64,000 bases of DNA from an uncultured Candidatus Saccharibacteria bacterium (lineage in GTDB: Bacteria > Patescibacteriota > Minisyncoccia > Phycocordibacterales > UBA9973): NCBI GenBank assembly GCA_964532495.1, contig CAZHJZ010000003.1, positions 3,658 to 67,657 on the forward strand, written 5' to 3'. The notes below the pieces were generated by a model. The model did not search any database. It saw only the letters and a program-made list of their open reading frames with translations, and was not told the origin of the DNA. The translations under genes were made by a program, and so were the position numbers. Of the stretch, positions 26,161 to 47,392 are shown piece after piece; positions within the stretch are counted from its first letter, which is position 1, and each line of letters begins with the position of its first letter.

Positions 26161-26652
26161 ATGCAAACAACCCAGATCGAACAAATTGTTAAGGAATTCT
26201 TCAAAGAAACCGGACTCTATGCCGGAGAGGTTTCATTCATCCAAGACGACGATACGAAAACGATCTGGTGTGCGATTTCACTCAACGACGGACGCCTTCT
26301 CACAGGCAAGAATGGTGAAACATTGGCTGCCATCAACCACCTTGTACGAAAGATTATTGAAAAGAATCTTGGTATCAAAGAGGAAGACAAGCAGGCCGCA
26401 TGGAATATAATTGTAGATATAAACAACTTCCAAAAGAAGCGCGTAGATAGCGTTAAAGCAGTGGCTCATATGATGGCAGAGCGTGCTCGATTCTTCAAAT
26501 CAAGCATTGAAGTTGATCCGATGCCGCCGTTTGAACGCCGAATCGTTCACGAATTTCTCTCAAACATGCCTGACCTCAAAACAGAATCTACTGGTGAAGG
26601 AATGAAGCGAAGAGTAGTGATCAAATACGTAGGAAATAACTCAACAATATAA
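26161..26652 (+). CDS. jag: Jag/KhpB-like RNA-binding protein (KH + R3H domains)
   Basis: Immediately follows yidC, as in the yidC-jag operon. The C-terminal R3H-like segment reads ...FERRIVHEFLSNMPDLKTESTGEGMKRRVVIKY. Confidence 0.7.
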   Translation: MQTTQIEQIVKEFFKETGLYAGEVSFIQDDDTKTIWCAISLNDGRLLTGKNGETLAAINHLVRKIIEKNLGIKEEDKQAAWNIIVDINNFQKKRVDSVKAVAHMMAERARFFKSSIEVDPMPPFERRIVHEFLSNMPDLKTESTGEGMKRRVVIKYVGNNSTI

Positions 26653-26693: not shown

Positions 26694-28319
26694 TTATATG
26701 GCTTGTTCTACAGGTGGAGTCAGATCGTATTGCCATAATATGTTTGTATCCCTGTTCATGAAATAGAGGTATCTGTATTTGTCGTCTACCCGCAATCGCA
26801 CGCCGTCTGTGGGTTCGCCGCCTTCCGAGAGCGGGCTAAATAGCTGGCGGTTGTCGTAGTTGCCTGTAGGGTCTATGTACCAGAATGAGTCGGTAAACGA
26901 TACTGTTCCCTGATACCAGCTATCTGGATAGACTGATCCAGCCGGGATAACAGCAGGAACTGCGCAATAAAGACTAGCACTGTCATTTGCCCAGACACAT
27001 TTCTCAGGAAGGCTATAGAGACCGAGGTTTGTTGTTTTATTGGTCGACACATCTTCAAGCGTAAGCGCTGGGCCGTTCTTTGTGTTTTTGCTATACAACA
27101 AGTATTGCCCGTTCGGACTCATAAGCGTTGTGAGCGCGCTCACCGGCCCTACAACCTTTGTGAAATCTCCTTTTGTAAGATCGGTAGTGTAGGCATATCC
27201 TGTGGCGTAGGCTGTTGCTTTGATGGTAAAGACAAGCTTGGTCGGCGTAGCCCACTGAGAAAGCCATCCAAAAAATTGTGAAGAAAATACTTTTTTCTGG
27301 TTCTTGCCATCAAGATCGCTGGTAAATCCAACAAGGTTGCCGCCAGTAGGGAGCAAGTAGAAAATCTGCTTTCCATCGGGTGAAATAGTGAGGTCTGCAA
27401 TATTTTTCGGCATTGCGAACACTGAAAGTTCCGGGAGTGAATCTCCCCCAACGACTGGTTCATTGATCTTTCCGATAAGAGTGTCGATGGTCTCGTTGTC
27501 AGCTTCAAGCGATCGGAGGAATACCTGCGCTCCCTGGTCTCCGAAGAATGCTTGCTGTACGCGAGGAATTGTCGTTGCCGAAAGGCGGGTTGTCTGAAGT
27601 GAATCTGCGAAAGCATCAAAAATGTTGCTTGTTCCTTCCGCGACAAATCGGACAATTTCTTTAAGTACTGTTTCTGGGGTTTCAACCGGGAAAGTACAAA
27701 CAAAACCAGCCTGGAGTTTTTTGATTGTTACCGCGTCTACTATGCCAGTACCATTGGTGAGGTTTTGCGGTTTTAAAATATCATCAGCAAAAAGTTCCTG
27801 GAAGACAGTGATTGCTTTTGCGGTTGCTGGGCCATACAAGGTTCCTTCTTTGCCGGGAGAGCCTGCTCCAGTCGCCGCAACCTGAGTAGCTGGACACTGG
27901 TTAAGCATTTTCTGAAGCTCTGTTACGTCTGTGCCAGTATCCCCCGTCTTGATCTCTTTTGAAAAAGCATATGATGTTGTAATGGTAACTTGTTTTGGTG
28001 CTGGAATGCTGTTTGGATCAACAGGCACTCGCTTTTGCGTAGTGGTGTAGCCAATGACCGGATTAACAGAAACTTTTCGTAGTCGAGGAATTTTTTGCCC
28101 TGGCGTTACAGTTGGTCCGCCCGTTGTCTGTTGCGGCCCGCTAGTCGTATTGTTGTTATTTTGAGCAGGATTTCCTGGCCCGAATGGGAAAAGATCCTTG
28201 ATCGTTACTGGCCCGCCGCCGTTATTCTTCTGTGCGTTTCGATACAGGAAAAATCCAAGGAGAAAAAGCCCGATGAGAACAAAGATAATTATTAAAATGG
28301 TAAATGATTTTTTTGACAT
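26694..28319 (-). CDS. membrane-anchored protein with peptidoglycan-binding (PG_binding_1-like) domain and TolB-like beta-propeller repeats; last gene of the T4SS-like locus
   Basis: N-terminal TM helix (FTILIIIFVLIGLFLLGFFLY); segment GDTGTDVTELQKMLNQ....LYGPATAKAITVFQ typical of the PG-binding domain; repeated SPDGKQIFY / SPNGQYLLYS PD40-like motifs. Confidence 0.6.
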   Translation of the reverse strand: MSKKSFTILIIIFVLIGLFLLGFFLYRNAQKNNGGGPVTIKDLFPFGPGNPAQNNNNTTSGPQQTTGGPTVTPGQKIPRLRKVSVNPVIGYTTTQKRVPVDPNSIPAPKQVTITTSYAFSKEIKTGDTGTDVTELQKMLNQCPATQVAATGAGSPGKEGTLYGPATAKAITVFQELFADDILKPQNLTNGTGIVDAVTIKKLQAGFVCTFPVETPETVLKEIVRFVAEGTSNIFDAFADSLQTTRLSATTIPRVQQAFFGDQGAQVFLRSLEADNETIDTLIGKINEPVVGGDSLPELSVFAMPKNIADLTISPDGKQIFYLLPTGGNLVGFTSDLDGKNQKKVFSSQFFGWLSQWATPTKLVFTIKATAYATGYAYTTDLTKGDFTKVVGPVSALTTLMSPNGQYLLYSKNTKNGPALTLEDVSTNKTTNLGLYSLPEKCVWANDSASLYCAVPAVIPAGSVYPDSWYQGTVSFTDSFWYIDPTGNYDNRQLFSPLSEGGEPTDGVRLRVDDKYRYLYFMNRDTNILWQYDLTPPVEQAI

Positions 28320-28323
28320 AGGT

Positions 28324-29382
28324 TTACCAGTGGGCTACATGAAAATGATTGGCTTCTCGGATAAATATAACACCGTCAAATGTATACTGTCCCGCTTGTC
28401 CGACAGGACACCCGTCTCCGGATTGTCCTGCGATCCATTCATGGCATGTTCTTTTAATTCCAGGGATGCTTTTGATGTATGTTTCAAGTCCGCCTGATGT
28501 GGGATCAAGGTCTACCACTCCACTTCCGATCTCATGGGTTTGGTGGAGCCAGCATTCGCTTGCGCCAGTTAGTATGAGTTTGCAAGAAGCATCTTGGTTC
28601 TTGCAGCTAGCATTTCTAAGTTTTCTGAGCGAGTCTACATATCCGTCACCAAGCTTGTAGACACTGGTGCAGTTCTCGTCGCCCACTAATGCACAGTTTG
28701 ACTTGTTAACTTCTACGCCAACAGCGGATAATTTTACTCGAAATGCTGCGTCATTGTTGTTGATAGCCGGTATTCCTCCCCATGGCTTGCCTTTATCGAG
28801 AGCTACTCCATCAGCCGCTACTGCGTTCACACTACCTTGCTTGCAGTTGGTATTAACAGAAACATTCTGTCCGTTAATCTTGGTTGAGAGGATTCTGTAT
28901 GCGGCCGGTAAGTCGTCCTCACCCTTAACTGAAATGCCGTCGAGAGAGGGAGGGTCAATGCGCACGTCAGTGAGGTGCGGGTTGATGGTATATAAAAGTA
29001 CTACGGAAACAAGAGCGAGAATGATGCCTCCGATAGAGTGCGTGATCATTTCCCTCCCCCCCTCTTTTTTTGAAATGGCATCAGTCGTCATGTATTGAAC
29101 TCCACCGATAACAATCATGATGACACCGAGCGCCCCGATGATGCTGATAAATACTTTGATGATGAGATTGATGTAGTCTGTTGCGTTGGTTGTTGCAGGA
29201 TCATACATATCGTATGTCCCGTTTCCCAATGGAAGCGGTTCAAGCAGGCAGTATTGTCCTGAGTTGCTTTCGTTACAAGCAGCCTGAGCTTTGTGTCCCC
29301 CGGAAGATATTCCAAATACAATAAGTACAACGATGCCAAAGCTGAAGGCGATAAGAGATAGTTTTGCAAGAAAGGTACGCAT
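28324..29382 (-). CDS. VirB2/TrbC-like pilin-family protein with ~200-aa Cys-rich C-terminal extension
   Basis: Signal peptide ending ...HKAQA, then TDYINLIIKVFISIIGALGVIMIVIGGVQYMTTDAIS followed by a second hydrophobic helix (SIGGIILALVSVVLLYT). This is the two-helix TrbC/VirB2 architecture. The C-terminal half carries 10 Cys. Confidence 0.5.
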   Translation of the reverse strand: MRTFLAKLSLIAFSFGIVVLIVFGISSGGHKAQAACNESNSGQYCLLEPLPLGNGTYDMYDPATTNATDYINLIIKVFISIIGALGVIMIVIGGVQYMTTDAISKKEGGREMITHSIGGIILALVSVVLLYTINPHLTDVRIDPPSLDGISVKGEDDLPAAYRILSTKINGQNVSVNTNCKQGSVNAVAADGVALDKGKPWGGIPAINNNDAAFRVKLSAVGVEVNKSNCALVGDENCTSVYKLGDGYVDSLRKLRNASCKNQDASCKLILTGASECWLHQTHEIGSGVVDLDPTSGGLETYIKSIPGIKRTCHEWIAGQSGDGCPVGQAGQYTFDGVIFIREANHFHVAHW

Positions 29383-29385
29383 GAA

Positions 29386-30411
29386 TTACTTTAGATTAAT
29401 AGTAATATTTTTTTCCGCCTCAAGGAAAAGCTTGAGGGTATTTTCAATGGAAACTTTCAAGTTTGAGATTCCCTTGGAGGAGCCGCTTTTGAGAGTAAGG
29501 GTATTTGGGGCATTCGGCGTAGTAACGGTATCGCCGTTGATAGTCCATGTGTATCTGAGCTGAGGAGATGTCGGACTCGCCGGGGAGAAATAATACGGAA
29601 TTGCAACGAGGGTTTTTTCTACTGAAGTTATGTCGTAGGATTTGCCAAGTTCGTGGTTCCAATCAACACCCTTGATGGCATCTCGCGCATACATGAGTAT
29701 TTGCGGTTTAAATATGGGTACGGTAACCGTACCAACTCCAACAGATCCCGTGGTGTTTTCTTGGCTCGTCACCTCGATCTTTTCTTCCTCGTTCAAATAG
29801 CTTTGCTGAAAAACAAGCGCGCTTTTGTTGAATCCTGAGTATTCCGGAATAGCAGCGTCATTTCGCTTCCATCTGAAAACGAAGTTGTTGATGTTTGCTG
29901 TTGTTCCCAGGTTGTTGATCTGAGGAATAGCCACGACTCGGATATACCCTTCAGAGCTCGGCAGCGCTCGTCCTCGGTAAAATGGAGGCGTATATGAATC
30001 AGCTCCCTCCCAGATCAAATCCGCTTCTGATGGGTTGAAGAGCATTCTTTTCTGGATAGCTTCACCAGTAGAGAGGAGCATAGAGACATCGATTGTGGTT
30101 ACCTGTCCAATGTCAGCAGTTGTGAACGTAAACTGGTTTGCTCCGGTTGCTGAAAGGACAGTCTTGCCATCTTTTTTCCAAATGAAAAATGCCCGGCTGA
30201 CATCGGTGAGGTAGCTGTCTACGGTAACAGTTACGTCTTGGAATGCTCCGGGTATTTCTGGTTCTGAAGAAAACGAGACATCTTGCTGGTTGATCTGTGA
30301 GGCTTCTTGGACTGAGAGTTGCGCGTTTGTAGCCAAAGGAAAGAGACCTTCTCCAAAGAAAAGACCGACTCCGATGATTCCCAATATGAGAAATAGAGGA
30401 ATGCGCTTCAC
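29386..30411 (-). CDS. secreted/membrane-anchored hypothetical protein (341 aa), possible VirB8/TcpC-like periplasmic component
   Basis: GTG start; N-terminal TM/signal (IPLFLILGIIGVGLFF). Position between virB4 and the pilin gene. Functional assignment is inference only. Confidence 0.5.
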   Translation of the reverse strand: MKRIPLFLILGIIGVGLFFGEGLFPLATNAQLSVQEASQINQQDVSFSSEPEIPGAFQDVTVTVDSYLTDVSRAFFIWKKDGKTVLSATGANQFTFTTADIGQVTTIDVSMLLSTGEAIQKRMLFNPSEADLIWEGADSYTPPFYRGRALPSSEGYIRVVAIPQINNLGTTANINNFVFRWKRNDAAIPEYSGFNKSALVFQQSYLNEEEKIEVTSQENTTGSVGVGTVTVPIFKPQILMYARDAIKGVDWNHELGKSYDITSVEKTLVAIPYYFSPASPTSPQLRYTWTINGDTVTTPNAPNTLTLKSGSSKGISNLKVSIENTLKLFLEAEKNITINLK

Positions 30412-30425
30412 AAGTTTATTATATC

Positions 30426-30455
30426 ATGCGACCTGGCGATAGCCAGGTCGCCTCG
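30426..30455 (-). promoter_or_regulatory. hairpin gcgacctggc-tatc-gccaggtcgc abutting extended -10 TGATATAAT, GTG start 9 nt downstream
   Basis: Minus strand reads ...gcgacctggctatcgccaggtcgcATGATATAATaaacttGTG. Same module architecture as at ~33565 and ~33040. Confidence 0.5.
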
Positions 30456-30545
30456 AGCGGCGTGGTACATTAAAACTCCTATACCAGGCTCGAGCAGCCA
30501 CTAATTGTAGGAAAAACTGAAGGGAGCACCACAAAACACCCCTTC

Positions 30546-32384
30546 TTACTTCCCTTCCACTTCCTCCAAATCCTGCTTTGCTTTTCGAATCGCAAGGATC
30601 TGTGAAGGATCGGATGTGACGATCTGTTCTTCTGTGTATGATGCAATGATCTTGATAGCTACGTGCTTGAGTCCGGCAAAGAAGATACCTTCTCCGACAC
30701 CTGATTCGAGGAGGAGATACTTTTCTTCGTCTGTTAGGTGGAACACTTTTTGAAGATTGTCGATCGAACTTGGTGATTGCTTGAGCAAGATCTGGATAGA
30801 TGAGTTGGAGACAATTGGCGGGCCGTACTGGCTTTTCATGAAGTCGTCGATATTTTGAGTGATAGTCGCAAGTCCGAGATAGTATTTACGTCCGCGTTTT
30901 GCAATACCGAACAAGAATGACGCTGTGTCTTCTGACTTCATCATGATCCACGCCTCGTCCACGACAAGAAGTCGCTTTTTGAGAGTCTTGCGAACAGCAG
31001 TCCAGATGTGGTGCGTGACGATATACATGGCAACTGGCTTCAAGTCTTCTTCCATGTCTCGGATCGAAAAGACAACAAGGCGCTTGTTGATGTCCACGTT
31101 TGTTGGCTGGTTCAAGAATGTTGACCATGAACCTTTGGTAAATTTCTGAAGACGCTGAAGAATGGATTCTGATCCGTCCATTCCGGCAATAACCATTTCA
31201 AAGTCTGAAAGAAGCGGCGGCTCGGAGTTTCCGAGGTCGCTATCTACAGTAATGTCTTTCAATGCGTATGTTTCAGTAATAGCGCGGTCAACGAGGGCGT
31301 CTTCTTCTGGAGTAAGTCCTCCAAGCATGATACGGAATAGTCCAACAAGTTCGATGACGTTTCGACGGATGACATCCCCTGCTGTTTCATCAGCCGTTGG
31401 CATTGGAAGGTCGAATGGGTTGATGTGGTGATCGGATGAAAGCGAAATATTGAAGTAGCGTCCGCCAACTGCTTCAGCGAGATATTCATATTCTCGTTCA
31501 GGGTCGATAACAATAACATCAGTATCGAACATGAGCGTACGAAGAATTTCGAGTTTTGTCGTAAATGATTTTCCCGAACCGGAAGTAGCGATGGTAACAG
31601 AGTTGTAGTTTTCGAGGGAGAATCGGTCAAAGATAATAAGACCGGAATTGTGACGGTTTACTCCGTACAAAATACCCTTATCTGACGTAAGATCGAATGA
31701 AACGAATGGGAACAAGCTTGAAAGCGGCTCGGAATTGAGCTTCTGGTGGATGTTCAGCATATCGTTTCCAATTGGAATAACGCTTTTGAACCCCTCTTCT
31801 TGCTGGAAAAGCGCCGGTTTTATATAGACCAATTTGGATTCAAGGATAGACTTGATCTCGTTCTCTGTTTTGAAAAGCTCCTGTTCGTTGTCTGCGTAGA
31901 TAGTAATATACAAACCGACGTCGAACATTTTTTGCTGAGCCTGCATCAAGCTGTTACGAAGACCTTCGAGGTCGTTCACAGCAGTATCGAGCATGGGATC
32001 TCGCACGAGGCCCTTGCCTTCGCGAACATTGATCTGGCTTTGCACTTCAGCTACCTTCTTTTGGAATTCTCGAAGAATCTTTTCTGTTTCTATAGGATGT
32101 ATGAAAATTGAAACATCGAAGATCTTGTCGAGGTTGATAACCGGAGAAAACCAGTTGTCGGTAAGGAAACGAGGATATGAAATAACGAAGAATGTTCGAG
32201 CAACCTTGTCTCCGAGGTTGATGGACTTCGGTTCTATTTTGAGAGCAGATGGTGCGATAATGTCGCGGAATTCAAGCGTTGCGGCTTCGTAAATTTCCGC
32301 AGGCAGAACTGGCAAAATACCGCTTGTCGTTTGAGATGACGATGCCGCCGACTTTTTTCCAAATAATGAATCGAGGAAGCTCAT
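30546..32384 (-). CDS. virB4: VirB4-family T4SS ATPase, C-terminal ATPase part (612 aa from MSFLD...)
   Basis: Walker A ATSGSGKSFTTK and Walker B LLVVDEAWIMM; overall TraE/TrsE/PrgJ-like. The track ORF extends 55 codons further upstream in this frame, overlapping the N-part ORF. Confidence 0.85.
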   Translation of the reverse strand: MSFLDSLFGKKSAASSSQTTSGILPVLPAEIYEAATLEFRDIIAPSALKIEPKSINLGDKVARTFFVISYPRFLTDNWFSPVINLDKIFDVSIFIHPIETEKILREFQKKVAEVQSQINVREGKGLVRDPMLDTAVNDLEGLRNSLMQAQQKMFDVGLYITIYADNEQELFKTENEIKSILESKLVYIKPALFQQEEGFKSVIPIGNDMLNIHQKLNSEPLSSLFPFVSFDLTSDKGILYGVNRHNSGLIIFDRFSLENYNSVTIATSGSGKSFTTKLEILRTLMFDTDVIVIDPEREYEYLAEAVGGRYFNISLSSDHHINPFDLPMPTADETAGDVIRRNVIELVGLFRIMLGGLTPEEDALVDRAITETYALKDITVDSDLGNSEPPLLSDFEMVIAGMDGSESILQRLQKFTKGSWSTFLNQPTNVDINKRLVVFSIRDMEEDLKPVAMYIVTHHIWTAVRKTLKKRLLVVDEAWIMMKSEDTASFLFGIAKRGRKYYLGLATITQNIDDFMKSQYGPPIVSNSSIQILLKQSPSSIDNLQKVFHLTDEEKYLLLESGVGEGIFFAGLKHVAIKIIASYTEEQIVTSDPSQILAIRKAKQDLEEVEGK

Positions 32385-32385
32385 A

Positions 32386-33027
32386 TTATTGCAATTTGAT
32401 GGAACGCGAGATGTCCCCTGGATTAAAGACCTTGTAATAAAGCTCAATGGCTTCTTCCGTGCCAACTTGTACTGAACGAACACCCACACGGGTAAGTCCT
32501 TGCTGTACGACTCCGATACGCTGGTCGAGCTGGGTGCGATGTTCTTCAAAGTCGATTACCGCATTGCTTTTTTTTGTGTCACTTGAAGACCGCATGCCTC
32601 CAAAAAGGGATTTGTTGATGGTTCCGGCTCCGAGAGGAGATGAGCTATACGGAACAACGACAATAAACTGCTTTGTCATGATTGCCACTTCATCTGTAAA
32701 GCTGCGGATAAAGTTGATGTATTCTCTGGTTTGGATTTTGAGAAGCGGTTCAAGCTGTTCCTTCATGCGGTTTTCAAGCAAGAGAATGTATGGGCGGATG
32801 TCGAGCTTTCGCGACTGGATAACTATTTGCACCGAAAAGTCGAGCGAGTTCAGGAAGTTTTGAAACTGCATGATGGTTCCCTGCTGCTCATCGGCAGACT
32901 TGAGGGAGAGGTTGACTGATGAGGCGATCAAAAGAGCGCGCATACTCCCATCATTCAAAATAATGATGCCGTCGCGCACTTCCTTGATCGGAACGAATTC
33001 TTGAGTTGCTTTTGCGTTCAGTGCCAT
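32386..33027 (-). CDS. virB4: VirB4-family N-terminal domain encoded as a separate 213-aa ORF
   Basis: KATQEFVPIKEVRDGIIILNDGSMRALLIASSVNLSLKSADEQ matches the conserved N-terminus of Gram-positive-type VirB4 (PrgJ/TrsE-like). The stop is followed by one nt and then the ATG of the ATPase part (TAAtATG). Confidence 0.75.
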   Translation of the reverse strand: MALNAKATQEFVPIKEVRDGIIILNDGSMRALLIASSVNLSLKSADEQQGTIMQFQNFLNSLDFSVQIVIQSRKLDIRPYILLLENRMKEQLEPLLKIQTREYINFIRSFTDEVAIMTKQFIVVVPYSSSPLGAGTINKSLFGGMRSSSDTKKSNAVIDFEEHRTQLDQRIGVVQQGLTRVGVRSVQVGTEEAIELYYKVFNPGDISRSIKLQ

Positions 33028-33039
33028 CTGATAAATAGT

Positions 33040-33079
33040 ATACCATACCCGAATTGCCGAAAGGCAATTCGGGTATGGT
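33040..33079 (-). promoter_or_regulatory. 18-bp perfect hairpin (taccatacccgaattgcc-gaaa-ggcaattcgggtatggt) overlapping extended -10 TGGTATACT, virB4-N ATG ~9 nt downstream
   Basis: Seen directly in sequence between the PrgI-like gene and the virB4-N start. Confidence 0.55.
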
Positions 33080-33118
33080 TATATGACGTTCTAAATATCT
33101 GCGACCAAGTGAGACCAG

Positions 33119-33544
33119 TTACTGTTTGTTCTTTTTTTCCATATCAAGCACATCCAAGCTCCAGGAAAGGTCTTTCAGCTTGGAATTAGAGAGTTTTGGA
33201 ACATAATTGAAGTTTGAAAGAGAAACATCGTCTTTCTTTTCCTCGTCCTCTTTTTTCTTTGCCTTTCTGTTCTGTTTCCAGATATAGAGCTTGGCGCCAA
33301 TATAGTAATTGAAAGCCGATTCCATGATGGCGATAAACGGACGGTTATTTACTTTATAGAATGTAAGTGCAAGCGCGAGAGGAGCTATAATAAGTATGAG
33401 AGGGACAGAAAAATAGATCGGCAAGAGTTTGTAGAGCGCAAATGATGCTCCTCCTCCGCCGACCAAATAGATAAATTGCTTGAACGTGAATGGTCCAAAG
33501 ATCTTGTCTTCCACATCAATAAATTGTGGGACTTGAAATTGCAT
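33119..33544 (-). CDS. PrgI-family / VirB3-like small T4SS membrane protein
   Basis: MQFQVPQFIDVEDKIFGPFTFKQFIYLVGGGGASFALYKLLP then a second TM helix. Matches the PrgI-family N-terminal pattern (V.P.DL..V.DK.F..LT.RQ....G) with two TM segments. Sits directly upstream of virB4. Confidence 0.55.
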   Translation of the reverse strand: MQFQVPQFIDVEDKIFGPFTFKQFIYLVGGGGASFALYKLLPIYFSVPLILIIAPLALALTFYKVNNRPFIAIMESAFNYYIGAKLYIWKQNRKAKKKEDEEKKDDVSLSNFNYVPKLSNSKLKDLSWSLDVLDMEKKNKQ

Positions 33545-33564
33545 ATGTGTAGTATATCATGACT

Positions 33565-33584
33565 GACCGATAGGTCAGTCACTT
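33565..33584 (-). promoter_or_regulatory. hairpin gactgacc-tatc-ggtcagtc followed by extended -10 TGATATACT, ATG 6 nt downstream
   Basis: Minus strand reads aaaaagtgactgacctatcggtcagtcATGATATACTacacatATG (PrgI-like gene start). Confidence 0.5.
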
Positions 33585-33585
33585 T

Positions 33586-34353
33586 TTATTCTACTGGCTC
33601 TCGATATGAGTCCCCTGTCTTTGCTCCGACACTGCCTCCGCCTACGTTCTTGATCGTGCGATCTGTCTCTTTTGCTGGCATAGAGAATGTTCCGCCTAGT
33701 TTTCCTGCAAGAATGTCATCGGCAGGCTTTGCCGTCATTGGAATAGGCTGTTTGATAGCGTCTACGGACGGAGCGCCTCCCGCGTATGGAGCGCGAGGAA
33801 CAGGAATAGTTGCGCTAGCTGGCTTCTGAAAGTTCTCATTGAGAACTCGCGGAGTTGAAGGAGCTGGGTTTTCAATGCCTTTGATCATGTCTGCGCGGTT
33901 TTCAGTTGCTCCTGCGGAAGGAGTTTGAGTTGGCGCATCAGGCTGAATAGATACTCCGGACTGTGCGAAAAGGTCTTTTTCTGTTTCTGAAGAAATATCA
34001 TCGCTGCCATCTGTCGGCTTGTACAGATTCATAAGAGATGCACGGATCGGAGTAAATACCTTGTCTTTTATTTCTTGAATGAGTTCGGTAAGTTCCTCTG
34101 GCTTTTGTCCGAGTTCGTGCGCAATATCTTTTTCATACTGTGATGGAGGGGTCATTCCAAGAAGCACCATGGTAGTTTCAAGTTCAAGCGTACCCAATTT
34201 TTCATAGGTAAGCTTGTGCTTCTTCGCTATTTCGAAAAGCTGCATTTGGTAATCGCTTGAAGTGATCGTCTTTTGAATTTCTTCAGGCAAAAGGGTAAAA
34301 CGAGTCTTTAGTTCCTTTTGAAGATCTTCGAAGTTGTCTTTGTTTTTATCCAT
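33586..34353 (-). CDS. hypothetical soluble protein (255 aa) within the T4SS-like locus
   Basis: Track ORF; acidic N-terminal helical region, Pro/Ala-rich C-terminus. Confidence 0.5.
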   Translation of the reverse strand: MDKNKDNFEDLQKELKTRFTLLPEEIQKTITSSDYQMQLFEIAKKHKLTYEKLGTLELETTMVLLGMTPPSQYEKDIAHELGQKPEELTELIQEIKDKVFTPIRASLMNLYKPTDGSDDISSETEKDLFAQSGVSIQPDAPTQTPSAGATENRADMIKGIENPAPSTPRVLNENFQKPASATIPVPRAPYAGGAPSVDAIKQPIPMTAKPADDILAGKLGGTFSMPAKETDRTIKNVGGGSVGAKTGDSYREPVE

Positions 34354-34392
34354 ATAGTATTAGTTATATTGTACCACGCGATTACCTAGTAA

Positions 34393-37300
34393 TTAATGTC
34401 CTCCATGGCCATGGTCGCCGGCATCATGATGTCCTGCATCATGGCTTGCTGGAGCGCTTTCACCTAAGCCCTTAAACATGTCGAATAGTTTTGAGTTCGG
34501 AGCTTTGTACGTAGCGGTAAATTTGTGCGCATGCTGTTCTTTGTGGCTTGCCTGTTCTGCTACTTGCTCTGATTGTCCCTTAAAGTTTCCGCTCCAAGCT
34601 ACTTTTTGATCATTGAGCCCGCTTGATAATCCTCGAGCAAGTCCTTCGTTCAGAGCGTCAGCACCTTCAGTGAACATGACTCGGAACGCAGGCATTACCC
34701 CACCATCCATCGCGCCTTTGACCGCACCAACAACACTTCCAGCGATTCCTCCAGCGAGCACGCTTGCTCCACCAGTCAATCCAGCAGCAAACAATCCTGC
34801 GCCCGCACCCATTGCTCCGCCCGATGCTGCGCCGCTCGCCATTTGCTTGAAGCCGTCACGCACTGCTTGTAAGAGTTCGCGAGAAGTACGTTCGCTACCG
34901 CCACCCTCTGATTGGCTTTTAAGGAATTTGACGTAGTCTTTCTGGCGGACATTCTTTGTCTTTTCGATTTCCTTTTCGTTGTCTTTCTTTTGCTTCTCTG
35001 CTCCGCGTATACCGTTAAAGGTTTTGCCGCCGATCACTATAGGTGCCTTGTTCTTGAGCATATCGACTTGATCATTCGCCCCCTTCACACTACTATCAGC
35101 ATCTGCTTTTGCTTTTAATAAAGTCGCAGGAACTGACTTTGCTTTTGGATTTGCTTCCTTGTATGCCTTGATTGCTTCATTTGCTTCACTCTGTTTATTT
35201 TTTGCAACTTGTTGTTTGCTCTCCGCTTCTTCCAAATCTTCTTTAGGTTTCTTCAGTCCGTCATCAATATCTCCGTTATCATGTTCGAGATGGTGGATCT
35301 TCTCATCATTTTGTCCCAAGAGTTTCTTGAAGCTTTCTTCTTTTGCTGCCTTGCGGTCAACTCGTGCCTGCTGTCCTCCTGCTGTCATGTCAGTACCAAA
35401 CGACTTTGGAGCGATCAAGCCAGCACCCATATTCATATTTACGCCAGTCGCGCTTGAGAGTGCGTTTCCAAGACCAGTCTGGCGAAGATCGAAGCTTGAT
35501 TTTGAAAGCTTGTCGGCACGCTGCAATTTTGCTGCCGCATGCTGCTGTGCACGGAGGGCGTTTCTCTTTCCTTCTGCCGTATCGTCGATCGGGCCGAATT
35601 TGTTTCCATAGAGCTGGCTGAGTTTGGCGGTGTTACCAGACGCAGCATCTTTGAGATCCTGGTTCTGAAGAGTTTTCATAGCTGCTCCGCCGATGAACTT
35701 CGAGCCAAGAGCTGCTGCTCCGCCGGTTACCGCCATTGATGCCATACCTACTCCTGCTGAAACTATTCCAGCAAAGGCTGCACCAAACTGTCCAGCCATT
35801 TCTTCAGCGATTTTCTTGGCTGCCATGAGAAGTCCAATAACGATCATAGTTGGAAGCATGATCGCTACGAGGAATGATACGAAATTTCCGCCGGCGTCAG
35901 TAACCGCGCTCATTGTTGTACCAAGGAGTCCCCCATCATTTCCACCCACGAGGTAAACGACAAGATACAAGAAGAAGAAAAAGACAGGTGCATTGAAGCA
36001 GGCTTTCATGAAACCAGAAAGCCATGTGCTCCATCCGAGTTGCTTCAAATTGCTTTCAAGGCTTGGGACGATACTTGTCACGAATGCTAAAGGCGCAAAG
36101 ATCATTGAGAACCAGATTACGCCAATACGTCCCGCAAAGAAGGCCGCACACATAAAGAATATCCAAGCCAGAGCCATGTTGAGGATAAAGGCGATTAAAA
36201 GTACGAAGAATATGGTTCCAGTACCGACTGTGCCTGTCTGCTTAAGCTTAGCCAAGCTATCAGTGCTGAGGAGCTTTTGTGGCTGCACTCCGCCGACGAT
36301 AACAGCCGAGATGGACTGTTCTTTGACTCCTACTTCGCCAGTAGTTGTTGGAGGGTTTTTCTTGGCACAGTCCTCTCCTTCCTTACAGATATTCATCGCA
36401 TTATAGAAAACTCGCGAGAGAATGTTTGATGCATCGATCGTCACGCGGCAGAAGAATAAGCTGAAGTTGATCAAGAGTCCGATGAGAATAACCTGAGCAA
36501 CTATTTTTTTTGTATTTACGTGGTGAAGCGAAAGAACAAGTCCGAGCGCCGCATAGAGAAGTATGAATATGAAAAAGATATTGGCGATATCGCGAACCAA
36601 GCTCCAGCCGTTTTCAACGAATGAAGCGATGCCTGTACCGGCTGCTCCCTGTCCGTAGATCGTGCTTCCAAGGGAAACAGCGGCAAATGCGTCAAACAGT
36701 CGGCCTGTTGTCTGTGCAAGCCAGTATGATGTTGAGACAAAGATAGAGTTGAATGCTTCAGTGATGCACCCCCCGATATTAATTTTAAACCAAGGTGCAT
36801 CTCCATCCGTAGTAAAACAAGTGAGTTCCGCGCTAAAAGCGTTAGTGTTAGTAGCTGAAAAATCTGGAGTCTCAACGTAGCTGTCTTCTGCTTGCTTTGT
36901 AAGGTCTACGTTTGAGGCAGCAGCTTCTTCTGTTGTCTGCGTCATGATTTCAGTTACAGGACCGAGCGCGAGAAGGGGGCTGCCGATAGCATCTTCTTTA
37001 AGGAGAACTTGGAAATAATATCGGGTGTTTGGGGCAAGGCCAGTAATATGGATCGGCTTACTTGTGACAGGATTTTTTCCGAAGAAAGAATCTCGAGGAT
37101 TTACTTTCCAAAGGTATTGTCCGATGTTAGTGGCTGTAGTTGAGGCAAGAGTTGAGTTGAATGCCACTCCCTGTTTTGGAGCATAAGTGACAGGAGGTAG
37201 ATTTGGCTTTTCTACTACAATTGGATCAACGGCATAGCTATTAAAATTGCCTCCTACGATATCGAGCGTCGTGTTAGGAAAAGTCTTTTTTTCAGTTCCG

Positions 37301-37647
37301 ACCAAAAGAAAGACACCTTCCGTCATGCTATCTTCGTGTCTATTGTCGACAAGGATCTCGTCCCAAGCTCCCGAGCTGTCACCCATATCGAAATAGTTCT
37401 CTATAGAACCATTGTCTTGGGCTACTGCGCCAGTAAACCGTATAGTGACATCAAGCAAGACGCTCTTGTCATCCTTTCCTTTTTCAGCAAGAGTTGCAGC
37501 CGTAAGTTTTCGGAAATAGCCAGGGCCTGATGTCATTGAGAACGTGCCTTCAAAAGACGCTTCAGCTTTTTTTAGTCCGCCCCACGGAAAAAGCATACTG
37601 GCGAGTATGACGAAGGTCGCTATAAGTGCGCTTACTTTCTTCCGCAT
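34393..37647 (-). CDS. VirB6/TrbL-like polytopic membrane protein (1084 aa) with N-terminal extracellular domain and C-terminal Gly-rich and His-rich tail
   Basis: Signal peptide. After ~330 aa there are >=8 hydrophobic helices separated by short loops (IANIFFIFILLYAALGLVL, ILIGLLINFSLFF, IFFVLLIAFILNMALAWIFFMCAAFFAGRIGVIWFSMIFAPLAF, VFFFFLYLVVYLVGG, LVAIMLPTMIVIGLLMA...), the hallmark of TrbL/VirB6 proteins. Long charged C-terminal region ends in HDAGHHDAGDHGHGGH. Confidence 0.6.
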   Translation of the reverse strand: MRKKVSALIATFVILASMLFPWGGLKKAEASFEGTFSMTSGPGYFRKLTAATLAEKGKDDKSVLLDVTIRFTGAVAQDNGSIENYFDMGDSSGAWDEILVDNRHEDSMTEGVFLLVGTEKKTFPNTTLDIVGGNFNSYAVDPIVVEKPNLPPVTYAPKQGVAFNSTLASTTATNIGQYLWKVNPRDSFFGKNPVTSKPIHITGLAPNTRYYFQVLLKEDAIGSPLLALGPVTEIMTQTTEEAAASNVDLTKQAEDSYVETPDFSATNTNAFSAELTCFTTDGDAPWFKINIGGCITEAFNSIFVSTSYWLAQTTGRLFDAFAAVSLGSTIYGQGAAGTGIASFVENGWSLVRDIANIFFIFILLYAALGLVLSLHHVNTKKIVAQVILIGLLINFSLFFCRVTIDASNILSRVFYNAMNICKEGEDCAKKNPPTTTGEVGVKEQSISAVIVGGVQPQKLLSTDSLAKLKQTGTVGTGTIFFVLLIAFILNMALAWIFFMCAAFFAGRIGVIWFSMIFAPLAFVTSIVPSLESNLKQLGWSTWLSGFMKACFNAPVFFFFLYLVVYLVGGNDGGLLGTTMSAVTDAGGNFVSFLVAIMLPTMIVIGLLMAAKKIAEEMAGQFGAAFAGIVSAGVGMASMAVTGGAAALGSKFIGGAAMKTLQNQDLKDAASGNTAKLSQLYGNKFGPIDDTAEGKRNALRAQQHAAAKLQRADKLSKSSFDLRQTGLGNALSSATGVNMNMGAGLIAPKSFGTDMTAGGQQARVDRKAAKEESFKKLLGQNDEKIHHLEHDNGDIDDGLKKPKEDLEEAESKQQVAKNKQSEANEAIKAYKEANPKAKSVPATLLKAKADADSSVKGANDQVDMLKNKAPIVIGGKTFNGIRGAEKQKKDNEKEIEKTKNVRQKDYVKFLKSQSEGGGSERTSRELLQAVRDGFKQMASGAASGGAMGAGAGLFAAGLTGGASVLAGGIAGSVVGAVKGAMDGGVMPAFRVMFTEGADALNEGLARGLSSGLNDQKVAWSGNFKGQSEQVAEQASHKEQHAHKFTATYKAPNSKLFDMFKGLGESAPASHDAGHHDAGDHGHGGH

Positions 37648-37699
37648 TCTGTAAGTAAGTATACCCTAGTTGTTTGATTTTAGGAATGAGAAAACACTG

Positions 37700-37735
37700 T
37701 GGGGATAACAAAACCCCCGGAAGGAGATCCTTCCG
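37700..37735. terminator. strong terminator aaaacccccggaagg-agat-ccttccgggggttttt
   Basis: 11-bp GC-rich perfect stem flanked by A4/T5. Lies between the 956-aa gene and the VirB6-like gene, so the locus is at least two transcription units. Confidence 0.7.
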
Positions 37736-37750
37736 GGGGTTTTTATAAAG

Positions 37751-40621
37751 TTAGAACGCTCCCATCGTGTAGTCCTTTACACTTGAGTCGTAAAAGTTCT
37801 TACAATTAAGGTCGATCTTTGGTCGTCGGAACAATGAATCCCAATGACTTCGCTGTGGCAGTGTCTGAACATCGTACTTGTCGAGGATAGCCTGACAATA
37901 GAACAATCGTTCACTTGTCTGGTCAGCATTAACAACGGTATCTGAGCTATCTTCAAACGAATCAACAATATTTAGGGCTTGTCGCAATCTCTCGGTTCCC
38001 GTAGAGTTTGTGTCCCAACCCTCGCCAAGATCAGAGATCGGCGTAGTTGCCGTTACGATGGCATAGAGTATCGTCATTTGCTGATCACTCAGTGCCCCGT
38101 AAATACTTCTATCGTCTTCACTGAGGTTTCCGGAGAACCATGGATCTGCCGCAAGCGTAGTCACCATGTCCGCTCGACTAAGGTTTGATGGCAGCTGAAC
38201 CTGGTTGAAGCCGCTTGATGTGTACTGAAGATCGTCGATTGTTCCTGTGCCATACGGGCTGATATACATTTCCTTGGGCGTTCGTGGATTTGTAATAGTT
38301 GGGATACCGAACAGCGCTAATACTACTTGTCGAGCAATGTTTGTCTTATCAGCCGTATATGAAGTGATGATAAAACCGTGCTGATTGATGGCGTCAATGA
38401 TGTTTGCTGGGAGTGTTGCAGGGTTTACCTTCTCAACAATGGTTGGAGAATTACCCATCTGCTGGATGAATTTGTTGTTATATCCTCCGAATACAACATG
38501 GTAGATATTCTGGGATCGGTAGATTTCTCGCTCGTCCAAAATTGTGTTGATCATAAGGCCGATGTTGTCATACTGGGCTTTTACTTGCTCGTACGTTGCC
38601 TGAGCTTGCGAGATCGTTGCGGCGTTTGGAAGATCATCCATAAGCAATGCGTACGCTTTAAGTGCTCCCTTCATGATCTGATTGCCGGTTTCTGTTACAT
38701 AGTCAAATGGATTGAAATGGGCATTGCTTGGATCAGCGAGGATTGTCTGCCACTTTGTTGGATAGTTGAGCATGTGTGCAGGCGAGACTGTTTCGTTAGG
38801 ATGGTCAGCAAGGAATTCATCCAAGCTGTTATCTGGTTCTGGGTTATATGTTACATCCGCTGTGTGGTTTTTGAGGACATCGTCGAGTCGGCTTTTTACC
38901 GACTTCAAGCGAGCAAGTGTGGCAAGCGAAGTAGTGTAATTGTCTACGAATTCACCTTGTTTTACGCTGTATGCCACGCCATTTTGAACCATTGATGCAG
39001 CATCATTGTATGAAGGAAGGTTTGAAGTCAGCAGCTGAATTTCAATATCGTTTGGAATTGCTCCGGAGAAATTTTGAAGGTCTTCTGCGATTGCTTCAGC
39101 TTCTTTTTTGTATTTCTTGATGGATCGAGATACTGCGCGCTGGCTCCATACGTTCACTGCCGTTTGCAATCTTTCTACGATACGCTGTTTCCATCCATAT
39201 TTAGGTCCAGGAAGAGCATAGTCGAGCGTTCGAACCATGCTTGCAAAACTCTCTTGTCGGACAGTAGTACCGTCAGGGTTTTGCTGGCTTATGCCTCGCA
39301 TCAAGTCGAGCACTCTCTTGTATGCATCAACCTGCGCCTGCGCCTGTTCGATCAAAGTTAGCTTGATCTGATTGCCGCTAGCATCCGTAATGCCGATGTC
39401 TTGTCCTGTATAGAACAGTTCTTTAAGGTTGAGGTTTATGTCTGCTGCAGTTGTCCAGTTGCTAGGATCATTGCTGCTTTGTGAGTTGCTTGTAGCAGCC
39501 AATGATTGGCCATCGTATGTCCAGACAGGGCCTGGGCCTTTTGTTTTAGAAATTGCAGTAGAGAGAGCAGACAAGCCTTTGTCCAAAAGCTTTGTTGTTA
39601 ATGCGTTTACGATAGCTGAAATACTGTTTCCGAGAGCCGCGCCAAGTTCTGTTTGTGAGAATTTTGATCCCAAGGCTCGGTTGATTTGTGACTGAACCAC
39701 TGAACCCGGACTGACTGTTTTCCAAGTGATACAATCTGCTTCTGATTTTGCTCCGCCAAGGAAAAAAGTTTTGGCATTAGCTTGGCCTTGTTGTTGTTTG
39801 GTTGGAAGAGGAGGTGAATATCCGGCACCTTGCTGGCTTTGTTCCTGCGGTCCAACCTGTGGAGATGATCGGTATGCGACACAGGTTCTTTGGTTCAAGA
39901 ATCCTTGGCCATAATTGAGTTGCTGTTGAACAAGCTGCTGGCCTTTTGCAACAGTGTTTGCTGCCTTATTTGCTCCGACAAACAAAGCACCGTAGACATT
40001 GTTTGCTGGGTTTGAGTTAAATGCTTCATATCCAGCCCATCCGCCCACATTGAAATTGTTCTGGAATTTATTAGCTTCTTGTCCAAGAATATCTCCAAGC
40101 GTGTATCTCATTTTCTGTGCGATGTCTCCATTTTGGTTTCGGTAGCTCCAGATAAGAGCCTGTGAGATTTCTCGGCCATACGGGAATTTGCTTGCATTGT
40201 AACCGATCGTATCGATCAAGTTCTCGAGTTGAGCGTTTCCAATATTTTTGAAAAATGATTCAGGATTCTGAACGAACTGTGGCGATCCTTTGAATCCCCC
40301 GTTGATCCAGTTCACTGTTGCTTCAGTGAGTTTGTTGAGAAGAACTTTGGCAATTGCCTTCAAGATCATGCCGAGTAATTTTGCAATCCATTGAAGAACT
40401 GTTTTTGCAGTAGTAGTTGTGTTGGTTCCTGCATCTACGCCGATTCCGGCAGAAGCCAAAAAGTCCGCAACAGGGAAACCAGTCGCCTCCGCCTTTTGTA
40501 TTCGAGGGATAGGGGCGGTGAGCTGCAATGAGACCGGAGTCAGTACCACTCCGCCAAGTACGAATATTCCGAGGAGAGTTGCTGCGATCGTTTTGTTTTT
40601 TGCGTATTTATACATGATCAA
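37751..40621 (-). CDS. large secreted protein (956 aa), unknown function, T4SS-like locus
   Basis: N-terminal TM/signal (IAATLLGIFVLGGVVL). Polar, Asn/Gln/Thr-rich, no recognisable catalytic motif. Confidence 0.55.
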   Translation of the reverse strand: MIMYKYAKNKTIAATLLGIFVLGGVVLTPVSLQLTAPIPRIQKAEATGFPVADFLASAGIGVDAGTNTTTTAKTVLQWIAKLLGMILKAIAKVLLNKLTEATVNWINGGFKGSPQFVQNPESFFKNIGNAQLENLIDTIGYNASKFPYGREISQALIWSYRNQNGDIAQKMRYTLGDILGQEANKFQNNFNVGGWAGYEAFNSNPANNVYGALFVGANKAANTVAKGQQLVQQQLNYGQGFLNQRTCVAYRSSPQVGPQEQSQQGAGYSPPLPTKQQQGQANAKTFFLGGAKSEADCITWKTVSPGSVVQSQINRALGSKFSQTELGAALGNSISAIVNALTTKLLDKGLSALSTAISKTKGPGPVWTYDGQSLAATSNSQSSNDPSNWTTAADINLNLKELFYTGQDIGITDASGNQIKLTLIEQAQAQVDAYKRVLDLMRGISQQNPDGTTVRQESFASMVRTLDYALPGPKYGWKQRIVERLQTAVNVWSQRAVSRSIKKYKKEAEAIAEDLQNFSGAIPNDIEIQLLTSNLPSYNDAASMVQNGVAYSVKQGEFVDNYTTSLATLARLKSVKSRLDDVLKNHTADVTYNPEPDNSLDEFLADHPNETVSPAHMLNYPTKWQTILADPSNAHFNPFDYVTETGNQIMKGALKAYALLMDDLPNAATISQAQATYEQVKAQYDNIGLMINTILDEREIYRSQNIYHVVFGGYNNKFIQQMGNSPTIVEKVNPATLPANIIDAINQHGFIITSYTADKTNIARQVVLALFGIPTITNPRTPKEMYISPYGTGTIDDLQYTSSGFNQVQLPSNLSRADMVTTLAADPWFSGNLSEDDRSIYGALSDQQMTILYAIVTATTPISDLGEGWDTNSTGTERLRQALNIVDSFEDSSDTVVNADQTSERLFYCQAILDKYDVQTLPQRSHWDSLFRRPKIDLNCKNFYDSSVKDYTMGAF

Positions 40622-40633
40622 TATGAGTGCTAA

Positions 40634-41545
40634 TTAATATTGCCCAAGCTCGCTAATTGCTGCATCAGCATCGATAGGAGTTGCGACATTCCCATATGGC
40701 AATTTATTGGTAAGGTGAACCATGTATTCCAAAAGGTCTGAAATAGTTTGTGAATACTGCATTGAAGCAGAAAGGGATGAAACAGGATTATTGAATGTAT
40801 TTTTCATGAGCTGAATGCTGCCAAGCGTCTTATTCAAACGGTTCATGAGTTCAACATGTCCAAGAGCCGCTGCTTTTGGCGGCGGCAATGCTTTGAGTGC
40901 GGCAATAAGCTGTGAGTACCGAAGAATGATGGGATCAAGCTTGGCGAGCGCAGTTGGGTCATTTGCATCTAGGGCATCGCCAAGAATGACAACTGACACA
41001 TCTATGTCGAGTGGATACTTAGTATTAAAAAGAGCCTTAAGGTTTGTTGAGTATGTTTTGCGGTTTTGGTCAGTATCTGCAACAGTTTTGATATCAGCTG
41101 TAGTAAATACAGAAGCCAGAGACTGACTAGCGATCTGGTCTGTAACTTGCGTTGCGATTGCATTGCTGCCTTCTTCGGTGAGATCGCCGGATTGGCTGAT
41201 TGTCGCCGCAGTTGTGAAAAGGTCGCGAGCAAATTGCTCAGTTTCATTGATTGGCGGTTCTTCTATACTGCTACTTTCTGGTGATGCCGTAATTCCGAGA
41301 GCGGCGGTAAGGTTTTGCTTCCAGTCTTCTACCCCGTCGTTGTTGTAATCAATCTGTGCGATATCTTTTACTACAAGCGGAGCCGCTGTTGGCTGTGTAA
41401 CTTCTTCGCCCTTAACTACTCGCTGATTCACAAAGTAATTTGAAAGTTTCATCATGCCAAAAATAACCACAGCGGCACCAACGATAAAGCCGACTCTAGT
41501 TGTGAAAGTTTTACTTGGCAAATAGCTTGCAATATTTGTCGCCAT
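40634..41545 (-). CDS. membrane-anchored protein (303 aa), first gene of the T4SS-like locus
   Basis: Single N-terminal TM helix (VGFIVGAAVVIFGMM) then an extracytoplasmic domain. TATACT lies 8 nt before the ATG. Confidence 0.5.
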   Translation of the reverse strand: MATNIASYLPSKTFTTRVGFIVGAAVVIFGMMKLSNYFVNQRVVKGEEVTQPTAAPLVVKDIAQIDYNNDGVEDWKQNLTAALGITASPESSSIEEPPINETEQFARDLFTTAATISQSGDLTEEGSNAIATQVTDQIASQSLASVFTTADIKTVADTDQNRKTYSTNLKALFNTKYPLDIDVSVVILGDALDANDPTALAKLDPIILRYSQLIAALKALPPPKAAALGHVELMNRLNKTLGSIQLMKNTFNNPVSSLSASMQYSQTISDLLEYMVHLTNKLPYGNVATPIDADAAISELGQY

Positions 41546-42406: not shown

Positions 42407-42407
42407 A

Positions 42408-44330: not shown

Positions 44331-44352
44331 GAGGAGTATCATAGCATAAAAT

Positions 44353-44392
44353 AATTCCCGCCTCGCGGCCGAAGGCCGCGAGGCGGGAATTT
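44353..44392. terminator. 18-bp GC-rich perfect hairpin aattcccgcctcgcggcc-gaa-ggccgcgaggcgggaatt (terminator of the 901-aa gene, abutting the uvrD promoter)
   Basis: Seen directly; flanked by A/T runs. Followed on the minus strand by TTATGCTATGATactcctcATG. Confidence 0.65.
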
Positions 44393-47122: not shown

Positions 47123-47144
47123 GCTTAGAGTATTATGCTGATAA

Positions 47145-47348: not shown

Positions 47349-47392
47349 TATATATATGCCCCCTCCTCTCCCGTCTTCCCGGCAAGCGTTCC

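Follow-up and report, generated by a model that had tools for sequence, protein, structure and literature searches.

The ultrasmall Patescibacteria's type IV secretion system (T4SS) is among the most intriguing variants of this machinery, being chromosomal and relaxase-less, having pilins in a monoderm cell and being essential for the epibiosis of Saccharibacteria. Using transposon sequencing (Tn-seq), Wang et al. (2023) demonstrated that the locus SEML1_0006-0019 of S. epibionticum ML1 is essential for epibiotic growth (PMC10633639), and S. epibionticum is the only organism for which such a need in host-dependent growth has been shown. The ML1 locus resembles Gram-positive conjugative T4SSs, has unusual pilins and is without coupling and relaxase proteins. 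The accompanying tables list a 612-amino acid (aa) VirB4, an adjacent hypothetical protein, PrgI and two giant VirB6-like proteins, with a lysozyme/CHAP protein and a Hedgehog/DD-peptidase-fold protein downstream of virB4 (PMC10633639). Here we describe a 64-kb stretch of DNA (from contig CAZHJZ010000003.1; hereafter the window), in which ten consecutive genes represent another instance of this chromosomal, relaxase-less system, in this case in Paceibacteria.

A survey of the phylum by Quinonero-Coronel et al. (2025) placed its VirB4 proteins in a monophyletic clade related to MPF-FATA, with TrsD as the commonest VirB4 partner, PrgI/VirB3 and VirB2-like pilins present, VirB6 and VirB8 scarce, and VirB1 homologues tied to virB4 in Paceibacteria (PMC12102498). 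Relaxases were rare (109 homologues in 103 genomes), and the locus was found near dnaA, dnaN, rnpA, ksgA and rpmH (PMC12102498). A 2025 FEMS review treats the Patescibacteria systems as an established new T4SS group (PMC12857230), while in a cultured patescibacterium that takes up host RNA, tubular structures that are possibly T4SS pili penetrate the host (bioRxiv 10.64898/2026.06.21.733656). The novelty implied by the original prediction for our locus, which was made from the DNA letters, therefore does not hold, as the system has already been published (PMC10633639, PMC12102498, PMC12857230). Its sole apparently unreported feature is the fusion of a pilin core to a hydrolase domain that varies between species.

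The scan for protein families covered all open reading frames (ORFs) in the window that encode 100 aa or more. The block consists of ten consecutive ORFs at 26694-41545, all on the minus strand and separated by spacers of 1-134 nucleotides (nt). Both the ORFs and their boundaries are as originally predicted, the boundary of VirB4 aside. From the first gene to the last they are:

40634-41545, minus strand: p303, 303 aa, first gene of the block
37751-40621, minus strand: p956, 956 aa
34393-37647, minus strand: p1084, 1084 aa
33586-34353, minus strand: p255, 255 aa, missing from the earlier description of the block
33119-33544, minus strand: PrgI-family (VirB3-like) small membrane protein, 141 aa (PF12666)
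32386-33027, minus strand: TrsD-like protein, 213 aa
30546-32384, minus strand: VirB4 ATPase, 612 aa
29386-30411, minus strand: p341, 341 aa
28324-29382, minus strand: p352, pilin-hydrolase fusion, 352 aa
26694-28319, minus strand: p541, 541 aa, last gene of the block, convergent with jag

The features of the Patescibacteria clade are found together in this block: an MPF-FATA-related VirB4, a separate TrsD-like ORF, PrgI/VirB3 and a VirB2-like pilin, with no relaxase or type IV coupling protein (T4CP) within the 64 kb and a chromosomal site near dnaA that adjoins rsmA/ksgA. Most probably, the block is a chromosomally fixed, vertically inherited Patescibacteria T4SS that derives from monoderm conjugation machinery (MPF-FATA, CD1110/CTn2-like), is non-conjugative and serves exchange on contact with a host. 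Conjugation is not expected because neither a relaxase nor a coupling protein is at hand. The earlier view of the locus as a chromosomal, non-conjugative, Gram-positive-type T4SS-like apparatus with lineage-specific accessory proteins in a reduced genome is thus borne out by family scores and by synteny.

The likeness to S. epibionticum ML1 extends from the chromosomal site near dnaA/ksgA to a VirB4 of 612 aa, as in SEML1_0008, with an adjacent TrsD-like ORF, and to peptidoglycan hydrolases downstream of virB4 that include a Hedgehog/DD-peptidase-fold protein. PrgI, giant VirB6-like polytopic protein(s), a PF18895 pilin and a locus without relaxase or coupling protein are likewise shared with the Patescibacteria T4SS. 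The two loci differ in that ML1 has small pilins that stand alone, six of them in an array, and large hydrolases encoded by genes of their own (lysozyme/CHAP and a 1113-aa DD-peptidase-fold protein), whereas the window has one pilin-core gene, fused to a hydrolase domain. The window also has one VirB6-like giant where ML1 has two, and an accessory set (p303, p956, p255, p341 and p541) with no matches outside Paceibacteria-type genomes among those listed.

The ATPase of the block scores well above the curated cut-off of NCBIfam NF045971 (CD1110 family; 389.6 bits vs 325) and matches Pfam P-loop_TraG with 95 bits; its Walker A (ATSGSGKS) and Walker B (LLVVDEAW) motifs are both intact. Residues 37-571 align with residues 213-757 of the VirB4 of C. 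botulinum plasmid pCDC3875 (E = 1e-93; 33% identity over 551 aa), and the best plasmid relatives are CD1110-family proteins of Firmicutes and Actinobacteria at up to 36% identity. These matches assign it to the CD1110/MPF-FATA type of VirB4. At least 558 relatives were found among species-representative genomes, the best 80 of which are 77-89% identical.

A single virB4 gene had been proposed at 30546-33027. The ATPase call stands, and the gene proved to be two: a 213-aa ORF that stops at a TAA at 32386-32388, and a 612-aa ORF opened by the ATG at 32384 in another frame, the latter call being matched by independent gene calls on identical metagenome contigs. Residues 4-205 of the smaller product align with residues 23-197 of the one-piece, 797-aa VirB4 of pCDC3875 (E = 7e-9). 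It also matches the N-terminal region of NCBIfam VirB4_plasma (E = 5e-9) and, below the cut-off, NCBIfam TrsD/TraD (E = 1e-4; 22 vs 200 bits). Judged by these alignments, it is a TrsD-like protein corresponding to a detached VirB4 N-terminal domain. The split appears to be ancestral rather than a lesion because a complete, separate ORF of 211-234 aa is present in 79 of the 80 related loci. A frameshift or pseudogene was considered and ruled out by this retention together with the clean TAA-N-ATG junction.

The PrgI-family protein had been named at 33119-33544, and the match to PF12666 (41.9 bits vs a cut-off of 27) agrees with this; the protein is present in 78 of the 80 loci at a median identity of 53%. 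Besides VirB4, which the original prediction regarded as the one firm assignment, PrgI also passes its curated cut-off, and the pilin core, borderline in the window, is clear across orthologues. Between the PrgI and TrsD genes, a hairpin with a perfect 17-bp stem (33042-33079, minus strand) is followed by a TATACT box just ahead of the TrsD start, and the intergenic region has a minimum free energy of -35 kcal/mol. The hairpin is possibly an internal attenuator or processing site combined with a promoter. It is not conserved among the relatives, whose median spacer is 20 nt and of which few lineages have strong hairpins (our L017 and L041); in most of them the spacer measures 3-30 nt and often contains a TATAAT-like box.

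Comparison with conjugative systems of Firmicutes shows what has been kept and what has not. In pCDC3875 (CD1110/CTn2-type, MPF-FATA) there is also a PrgI-family protein, and the order VirB6, PrgI, VirB4, cell-wall hydrolase is collinear with ours. The plasmid, however, has a VirD4-like T4CP and a MOBP relaxase, whereas the window is without DNA-processing parts. Its VirB4 is in one piece (797 aa) and its VirB6 has 260 aa, in contrast to the split VirB4 and extended, 1084-aa VirB6-like protein of the window, and it has no pilin and a separate 957-aa SLT hydrolase in place of a pilin-hydrolase fusion. The staphylococcal T4SSs of the pGO1/pSK41 type resemble the window in having a separate TrsD homologous to the VirB4 N-terminus (PMC12102498). 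They differ in being conjugative, with relaxase and T4CP, and the TrsD-like protein of the window scores far below the cut-off.

The site of the block is set by its flanks, which are those originally named (rsmA and uvrD upstream, yidC-jag downstream):

41609-42439: rsmA, upstream flank
42408-44342: uvrD, upstream flank
26161-26652: jag, downstream flank
25427-26149: yidC, downstream flank
22128-23489: dnaA, downstream flank, 7 kb away (rnpA is also downstream)
20821-21918: dnaN, downstream flank

When the window proteins were compared with the related loci using tblastn, the order was found to be identical in dozens of species: rsmA, p303, p956, p1084, p255, PrgI, TrsD, VirB4, p341, p352, p541, the convergent jag-yidC and dnaA-dnaN. 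The ten-gene block is therefore far beyond chance, and its fixed order at the same chromosomal site excludes a recently integrated element and marks a vertically inherited locus. The GC content inside the block equals that outside, with no deviation. Median identity across the related loci is 79% for VirB4, 64% for DnaA, 53% for DnaN, 50% for YidC and 45% for RsmA. That VirB4 is more conserved than DnaA suggests very strong constraint by purifying selection. A block fixed beside the origin in dozens of species, with a motor of this degree of conservation, points to a machine that is central to a largely uncultured class.

No ORF of the family scan matched a T4CP (VirD4/TcpA), a relaxase, an integrase or VirB11, in line with the earlier statement that coupling ATPase, relaxase and VirB11 are absent from the window. 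The only PF00437 (T2SSE) ATPase, at 7980-9689 on the plus strand, was considered as a VirB11 and rejected by score, as it is a full-length PilB/GspE-type protein (462 bits for PilB vs 58 bits for VirB11). This ATPase adjoins a 609-aa ORF without a match (5972-7801, minus strand) and an 800-aa ORF with a DUF11 repeat (3432-5834, minus strand). Together, these three genes may belong to a locus for a type IV pilus or an adhesin, the second host-contact machine known in Patescibacteria.

The product of the penultimate gene, p352, is built of two parts:

28951-29253, minus strand: p352 aa 44-144, VirB2-like T4SS pilin core with a Y.LLEPLP motif and a two-helix transmembrane (TM) hairpin
28327-28905, minus strand: p352 aa 160-352, Hedgehog/DD-peptidase (LAS)-fold domain, putative Zn peptidoglycan peptidase with a VirB1-like role

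Hydropathy shows a signal-like segment and a two-helix hairpin, and the AF2 model places a helical hairpin at residues 67-99 and 103-133. Pfam PF18895 (T4SS_pilin) was matched by 35 of 36 syntenic orthologues (best E = 6.9e-10), and TrbC by four of them; PF18895 is also present in most close database homologues according to precomputed Pfam annotation. These profile matches confirm the identity of the VirB2-like pilin core at the family level. A search with a local hidden Markov model (HMM) identified p352 as the sole pilin-core ORF in the window. In 71 related loci a pilin-core ORF lies no more than 10 kb from virB4, as a single copy in 67 of them and as two long copies in the other four. A typical VirB2/TrbC pilin is a hairpin protein of ~70-150 aa, whereas p352 has 352 aa and a folded, enzyme-like C-terminal domain of 190 aa. 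Rather than a typical pilin, it is a larger protein with a pilin-like module in it. Thus, the TrbC/VirB2-like pilin proposed at 28324-29382 is right as to its core and has to be redrawn as a pilin-peptidase fusion.

The C-terminal domain has fold similarity to the LAS/Hedgehog-DD-peptidase group (M15-like Zn peptidases), and we regard it as a putative Zn peptidoglycan peptidase in a VirB1-like role. Two motifs, H283-x7-D291 and H346-x-H348, are invariant, with a spacing from H to D that exceeds the canonical H-x(3-6)-D...H-x-H by one residue. Pfam gave no match to this domain, and hhalign detected no similarity between the window-type cassette and the VanY, NlpC/P60, YkuD, SLT or lysozyme-like cassettes of other species. 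All p352 orthologues begin alike, with a signal segment, an N-terminal extension that varies, then a Y.LLAPLP motif and the pilin core of two helices, while the domains that follow the core at the same slot are unrelated to one another. Among 36 orthologues, Pfam identified NlpC/P60 in five, YkuD in four, VanY/M15 in four, SLT/SLT_2 in three and Amidase_5 in two, besides others. When the C-terminal parts from 70 species and database homologues were compared all against all with BLAST, they fell into at least 14 unconnected clusters, with lysozyme-like domains among the types. Cassettes differ even between species whose VirB4 proteins are 95-98% identical (for example, pairs at 98.4%, 97.7% and 96.9%). 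Fitch parsimony on a neighbour-joining VirB4 tree requires at least 44 cassette changes among 15 types in 68 species, on a tree that is poorly resolved and with four loci that have two paralogues. In the literature searched for PF18895 and for pilins combined with hydrolases, coverage of which was incomplete, we found no description of such a fusion.

A conserved N-terminal module joined, at a fixed locus, to non-homologous C-terminal enzymes that change between close relatives is also the architecture of polymorphic toxins and effectors. The resemblance does not amount to membership, since every p352 cassette that can be recognized acts on peptidoglycan, with no nuclease or deaminase among them, a T4SS pilin-like hairpin serves as carrier, and p352 is followed not by a variable immunity gene but by the conserved p541.

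On the basis of these assignments, the working of the machine can be sketched. VirB4/TrsD hexamers, seated on PrgI and the VirB6-like protein, would power the assembly of an envelope-spanning channel or a short pilus-like tube, the wall-spanning part of which would be formed or decorated by p341, p541, p956 and p303. The pilin-borne hydrolase would cut peptidoglycan, whether in the cell's own wall for assembly, in the wall of the attached host, or in both. The outcome would be contact-dependent exchange with the host cell, either protein export or uptake of host material, with the frequent swaps of the hydrolase domain as an adaptation to the wall of the target cell.

Several results weigh against this reading. 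The pilin core of p352 itself scores 23.6 bits with PF18895, under the cut-off of 26.6, and a canonical packed pilus is difficult to square with pilin subunits that each bear a 25-kDa domain. Because a fold-sized domain on each subunit suits the canonical lattice so poorly, p352 may be a tip or base component, or it may be processed. Sequence searches of the bitopic candidates p303 and p341 were negative, and no VirB8-like component (NTF2-fold; PrgL/TcpC/TraM) was identified. The PG_binding_1 match of p541 in the window stays under its cut-off (22.1 bits vs 23), so that the peptidoglycan-binding part of the originally proposed peptidoglycan-binding beta-propeller protein is borderline. VirD4-like genes lie far from virB4 in many Patescibacteria (PMC12102498), and their absence here covers 64 kb. 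Lastly, p1084 has no match to TrbL/VirB6 (PF04610 or NCBIfam CD1112), none of the 120 p1084 homologues listed matches PF04610, and the probability given by hhalign for p1084 as a VirB6 is just 35%, which is weak.

The case for p1084 as a VirB6/TrbL-like protein, as first proposed, accordingly divides: the polytopic topology is upheld by hydropathy, while family membership finds no echo in Pfam or NCBIfam. Hydropathy shows an N-terminal hydrophobic segment and ~7 TM helices at aa 354-640, with an exposed N-terminal domain of ~330 aa and a low-complexity C-terminal tail of ~440 aa. A PDB profile search returned nothing below E = 0.01, and an exhaustive HMMER search with the p1084 core yielded a family of 18,149 clusters at 50% identity. 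The gene adjoins PrgI/VirB4 upstream, in the same place as the 260-aa CD1112-family VirB6 of pCDC3875. When the p1084 core family was compared with a nine-sequence CD1112 alignment, hhalign gave P = 4e-4 and a score of 39.0 over 135 columns, which take in an invariant Arg...Pro helix; the reversed control scored 19.5 and 12 block-shuffled controls no more than 33.5. The term 'extended VirB6' denotes a polytopic core with large hydrophilic extensions (PMC12857230), an architecture that p1084 fits. Taken together, p1084 is probably homologous to VirB6.

Where the hydrolase acts is the point on which the closest alternative turns. The apparatus could be a self-directed envelope machine that builds the cell's own surface structures, with a hydrolase that remodels only its own wall in the classical VirB1 role. 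VirB1-type hydrolases do normally act on the wall of the producer, Patescibacteria have peptidoglycan, and several proteins of the block are predicted to be exported or membrane-anchored. We nevertheless consider this unlikely, as a constant self wall hardly explains why no fewer than 14 unrelated hydrolase classes should swap at a single slot, with 44 or more exchanges in 68 species, some of them between species of 98% identical VirB4, a pattern that resembles diversifying, target-driven domain swapping. Cultured relatives, moreover, use their T4SS in host contact (PMC10633639; bioRxiv 10.64898/2026.06.21.733656). Action on the wall of the target (host) is favoured because the various hydrolase classes attack different bonds and are replaced rapidly, while the wall chemistry of the producer should stay stable. 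Such a role would fit the host-penetrating tubular structures of the cultured patescibacterium. More tentatively, the Paceibacteria pilin might be a carrier with a permanently attached, peptidoglycan-cleaving 'warhead'; placed at either the tip or the base of the T4SS tube, it would drill through the host wall, with cassettes that track the chemistry or resistance of that wall. If this were true, the p352 gene would be among the determinants of host range in uncultured Patescibacteria and would allow it to be predicted from genomes. Cassette turnover offers a concrete way to test how these cells get through a wall, be it their own or their host's, and the cassette type may serve as a sequence marker of host specificity where hardly any hosts are known.

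A T4SS can import DNA even when it has no coupling protein, ComB of H. pylori being an example. A ComB-like system that takes up DNA, feeding nucleotides or genes to a reduced genome, would suit an organism that presumably lacks nucleotide synthesis, and a pilin, VirB3/4 and a VirB6-like protein are all to hand in the locus. We judge this slightly less probable still than a self-directed machine. The window also has a PilB-type type IV pilus ATPase, and the block has no DNA-binding or processing component. In S. epibionticum, competence needs type IV pili and ComEC, and deletion of comEC kills transformation and leaves viability unaffected while the T4SS is still essential (PMC12857230).

By far the least probable alternative is an integrated conjugative element, or the decayed remnant of one, with its relaxase, coupling protein and oriT outside the window. 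In its favour, the ancestry of VirB4, PrgI and the gene order clearly lies in conjugative systems of Firmicutes, inspection was confined to 64 kb and T4CP homologues lie far from virB4 in many Patescibacteria (PMC12102498). The original prediction had named this alternative as the finding that would overturn it; within the limits of 64 kb, synteny has already gone most of the way to refuting it, as dozens of species have the same order at the same site, with rsmA on one side and jag-yidC-dnaA on the other. The window has no relaxase, VirD4/TcpA, integrase or element boundaries and no GC anomaly, all ten ORFs are intact, VirB4 is constrained more than DnaA, and the phylum has few relaxases (109 homologues in 103 genomes; PMC12102498).

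The accessory proteins add a lineage-specific set to the core components. According to hydropathy, p303, p956, p341 and p541 each have one N-terminal hydrophobic segment and are predicted to be exported or membrane-anchored, in agreement with the earlier description of secreted 956- and 341-aa proteins and a TM-anchored 303-aa protein. Neither Pfam nor NCBIfam matched p303, p956, p255 or p341, PDB profile searches with p303, p956 and p341 were empty below E = 0.01, and hhalign found no similarity between p255, p341, p303 or p541 and any protein of the pCDC3875 T4SS region.

The best conserved of the set is p341, found in 75 of 80 loci. It is beta-rich, with three repeats of ~105 aa that each contain a W..[ND]G motif. 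Its alignment has a mean column identity of 48% with W78, W181 and W289 invariant, and all 82 of its 82 homologues are Paceibacteria-type, a few carrying PKD_3/BiPBP_C Ig-like Pfam matches. By comparison, p956 is lineage-specific and syntenic in 43 loci at ~27% identity, with no consistent Pfam family among 38 orthologues. No TM segment is seen in p255, which is predicted to be cytoplasmic; its N-terminal ~110 aa are helical and conserved, a low-complexity tail follows, and the gene is syntenic in 57 loci. The TM segment of p303 spans aa 14-32, its C-terminal part is mainly helical, and it is syntenic in 33 loci. Its family has a conserved DxDxDG(I/L)PDWEE motif at aa ~60-85, like thrombospondin-type/EF-like calcium-binding loops, of which the window copy is partly degenerate (IDYNNDGVEDW).

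The conserved core of p541, syntenic in 66 loci, is a TM anchor with a C-terminal propeller-like domain. PG_binding_1 is clear in five of 34 orthologues (best E = 5.4e-11), and the corresponding segment (aa ~110-210) is an insertion in a minority of them, namely the longer proteins. PD40 matches weakly in three orthologues and the window protein matches a TolB-propeller at E = 7.5e-4, so that the C-terminal beta-propeller is weakly supported.

As to the organism, the genomes with the best 80 VirB4 relatives are metagenome-assembled genomes (MAGs) of Candidatus Nomurabacteria, Paceibacteria or Paceibacterota, or are generically labelled Patescibacteria. Judged by its nearest VirB4 relatives, the genome is Paceibacteria/Nomurabacteria-like. 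A Saccharibacteria origin was considered and ruled out, the nearest VirB4 genomes being Nomurabacteria/Paceibacteria MAGs. Many TPA_asm MAGs titled 'uncultured Candidatus Saccharibacteria bacterium' (our L003, L004, L012, L017 and others) have a T4SS block and VirB4 proteins ~80% identical to those of Nomurabacteria/Paceibacteria genomes, and these organism labels look generic or wrong.

Other features of the window lie outside the block. Between rnpA/yidD and yidC, a 299-aa ORF (24422-25321, plus strand) has a weak N-terminal hydrophobic segment. Family searches gave no match for it, nor did tblastn in any of the 80 related species loci, and it is apparently a strain- or species-specific, origin-adjacent gene. 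On the other side, a terminator-like hairpin at 44353-44391 (minus strand; 18 bp, 13 of them GC, then a T-rich tail) parts uvrD from the upstream ORFs. Beyond it, at 44417-53010, are co-directional large ORFs of 901, 1096 and 578 aa without Pfam or NCBIfam match and a DUF5663 ORF. Other cell-wall enzymes are a protein with two LysM domains and Peptidase_M23 (53295-54485, plus strand), an Amidase_2 N-acetylmuramoyl-L-alanine amidase (62214-63332, plus strand) and a class A penicillin-binding protein with a C-terminal Big_7 domain (18016-20559, plus strand). Finally, a polynucleotide phosphorylase (PNPase; RNase_PH twice, KH and S1; 57646-59829, minus strand) and an NYN-domain RNase (61049-61552, minus strand) are both found less than 20 kb from the T4SS, and a host-RNA-feeding metabolism recently proposed for Patescibacteria has PNPase as its key enzyme (bioRxiv 10.64898/2026.06.21.733656).

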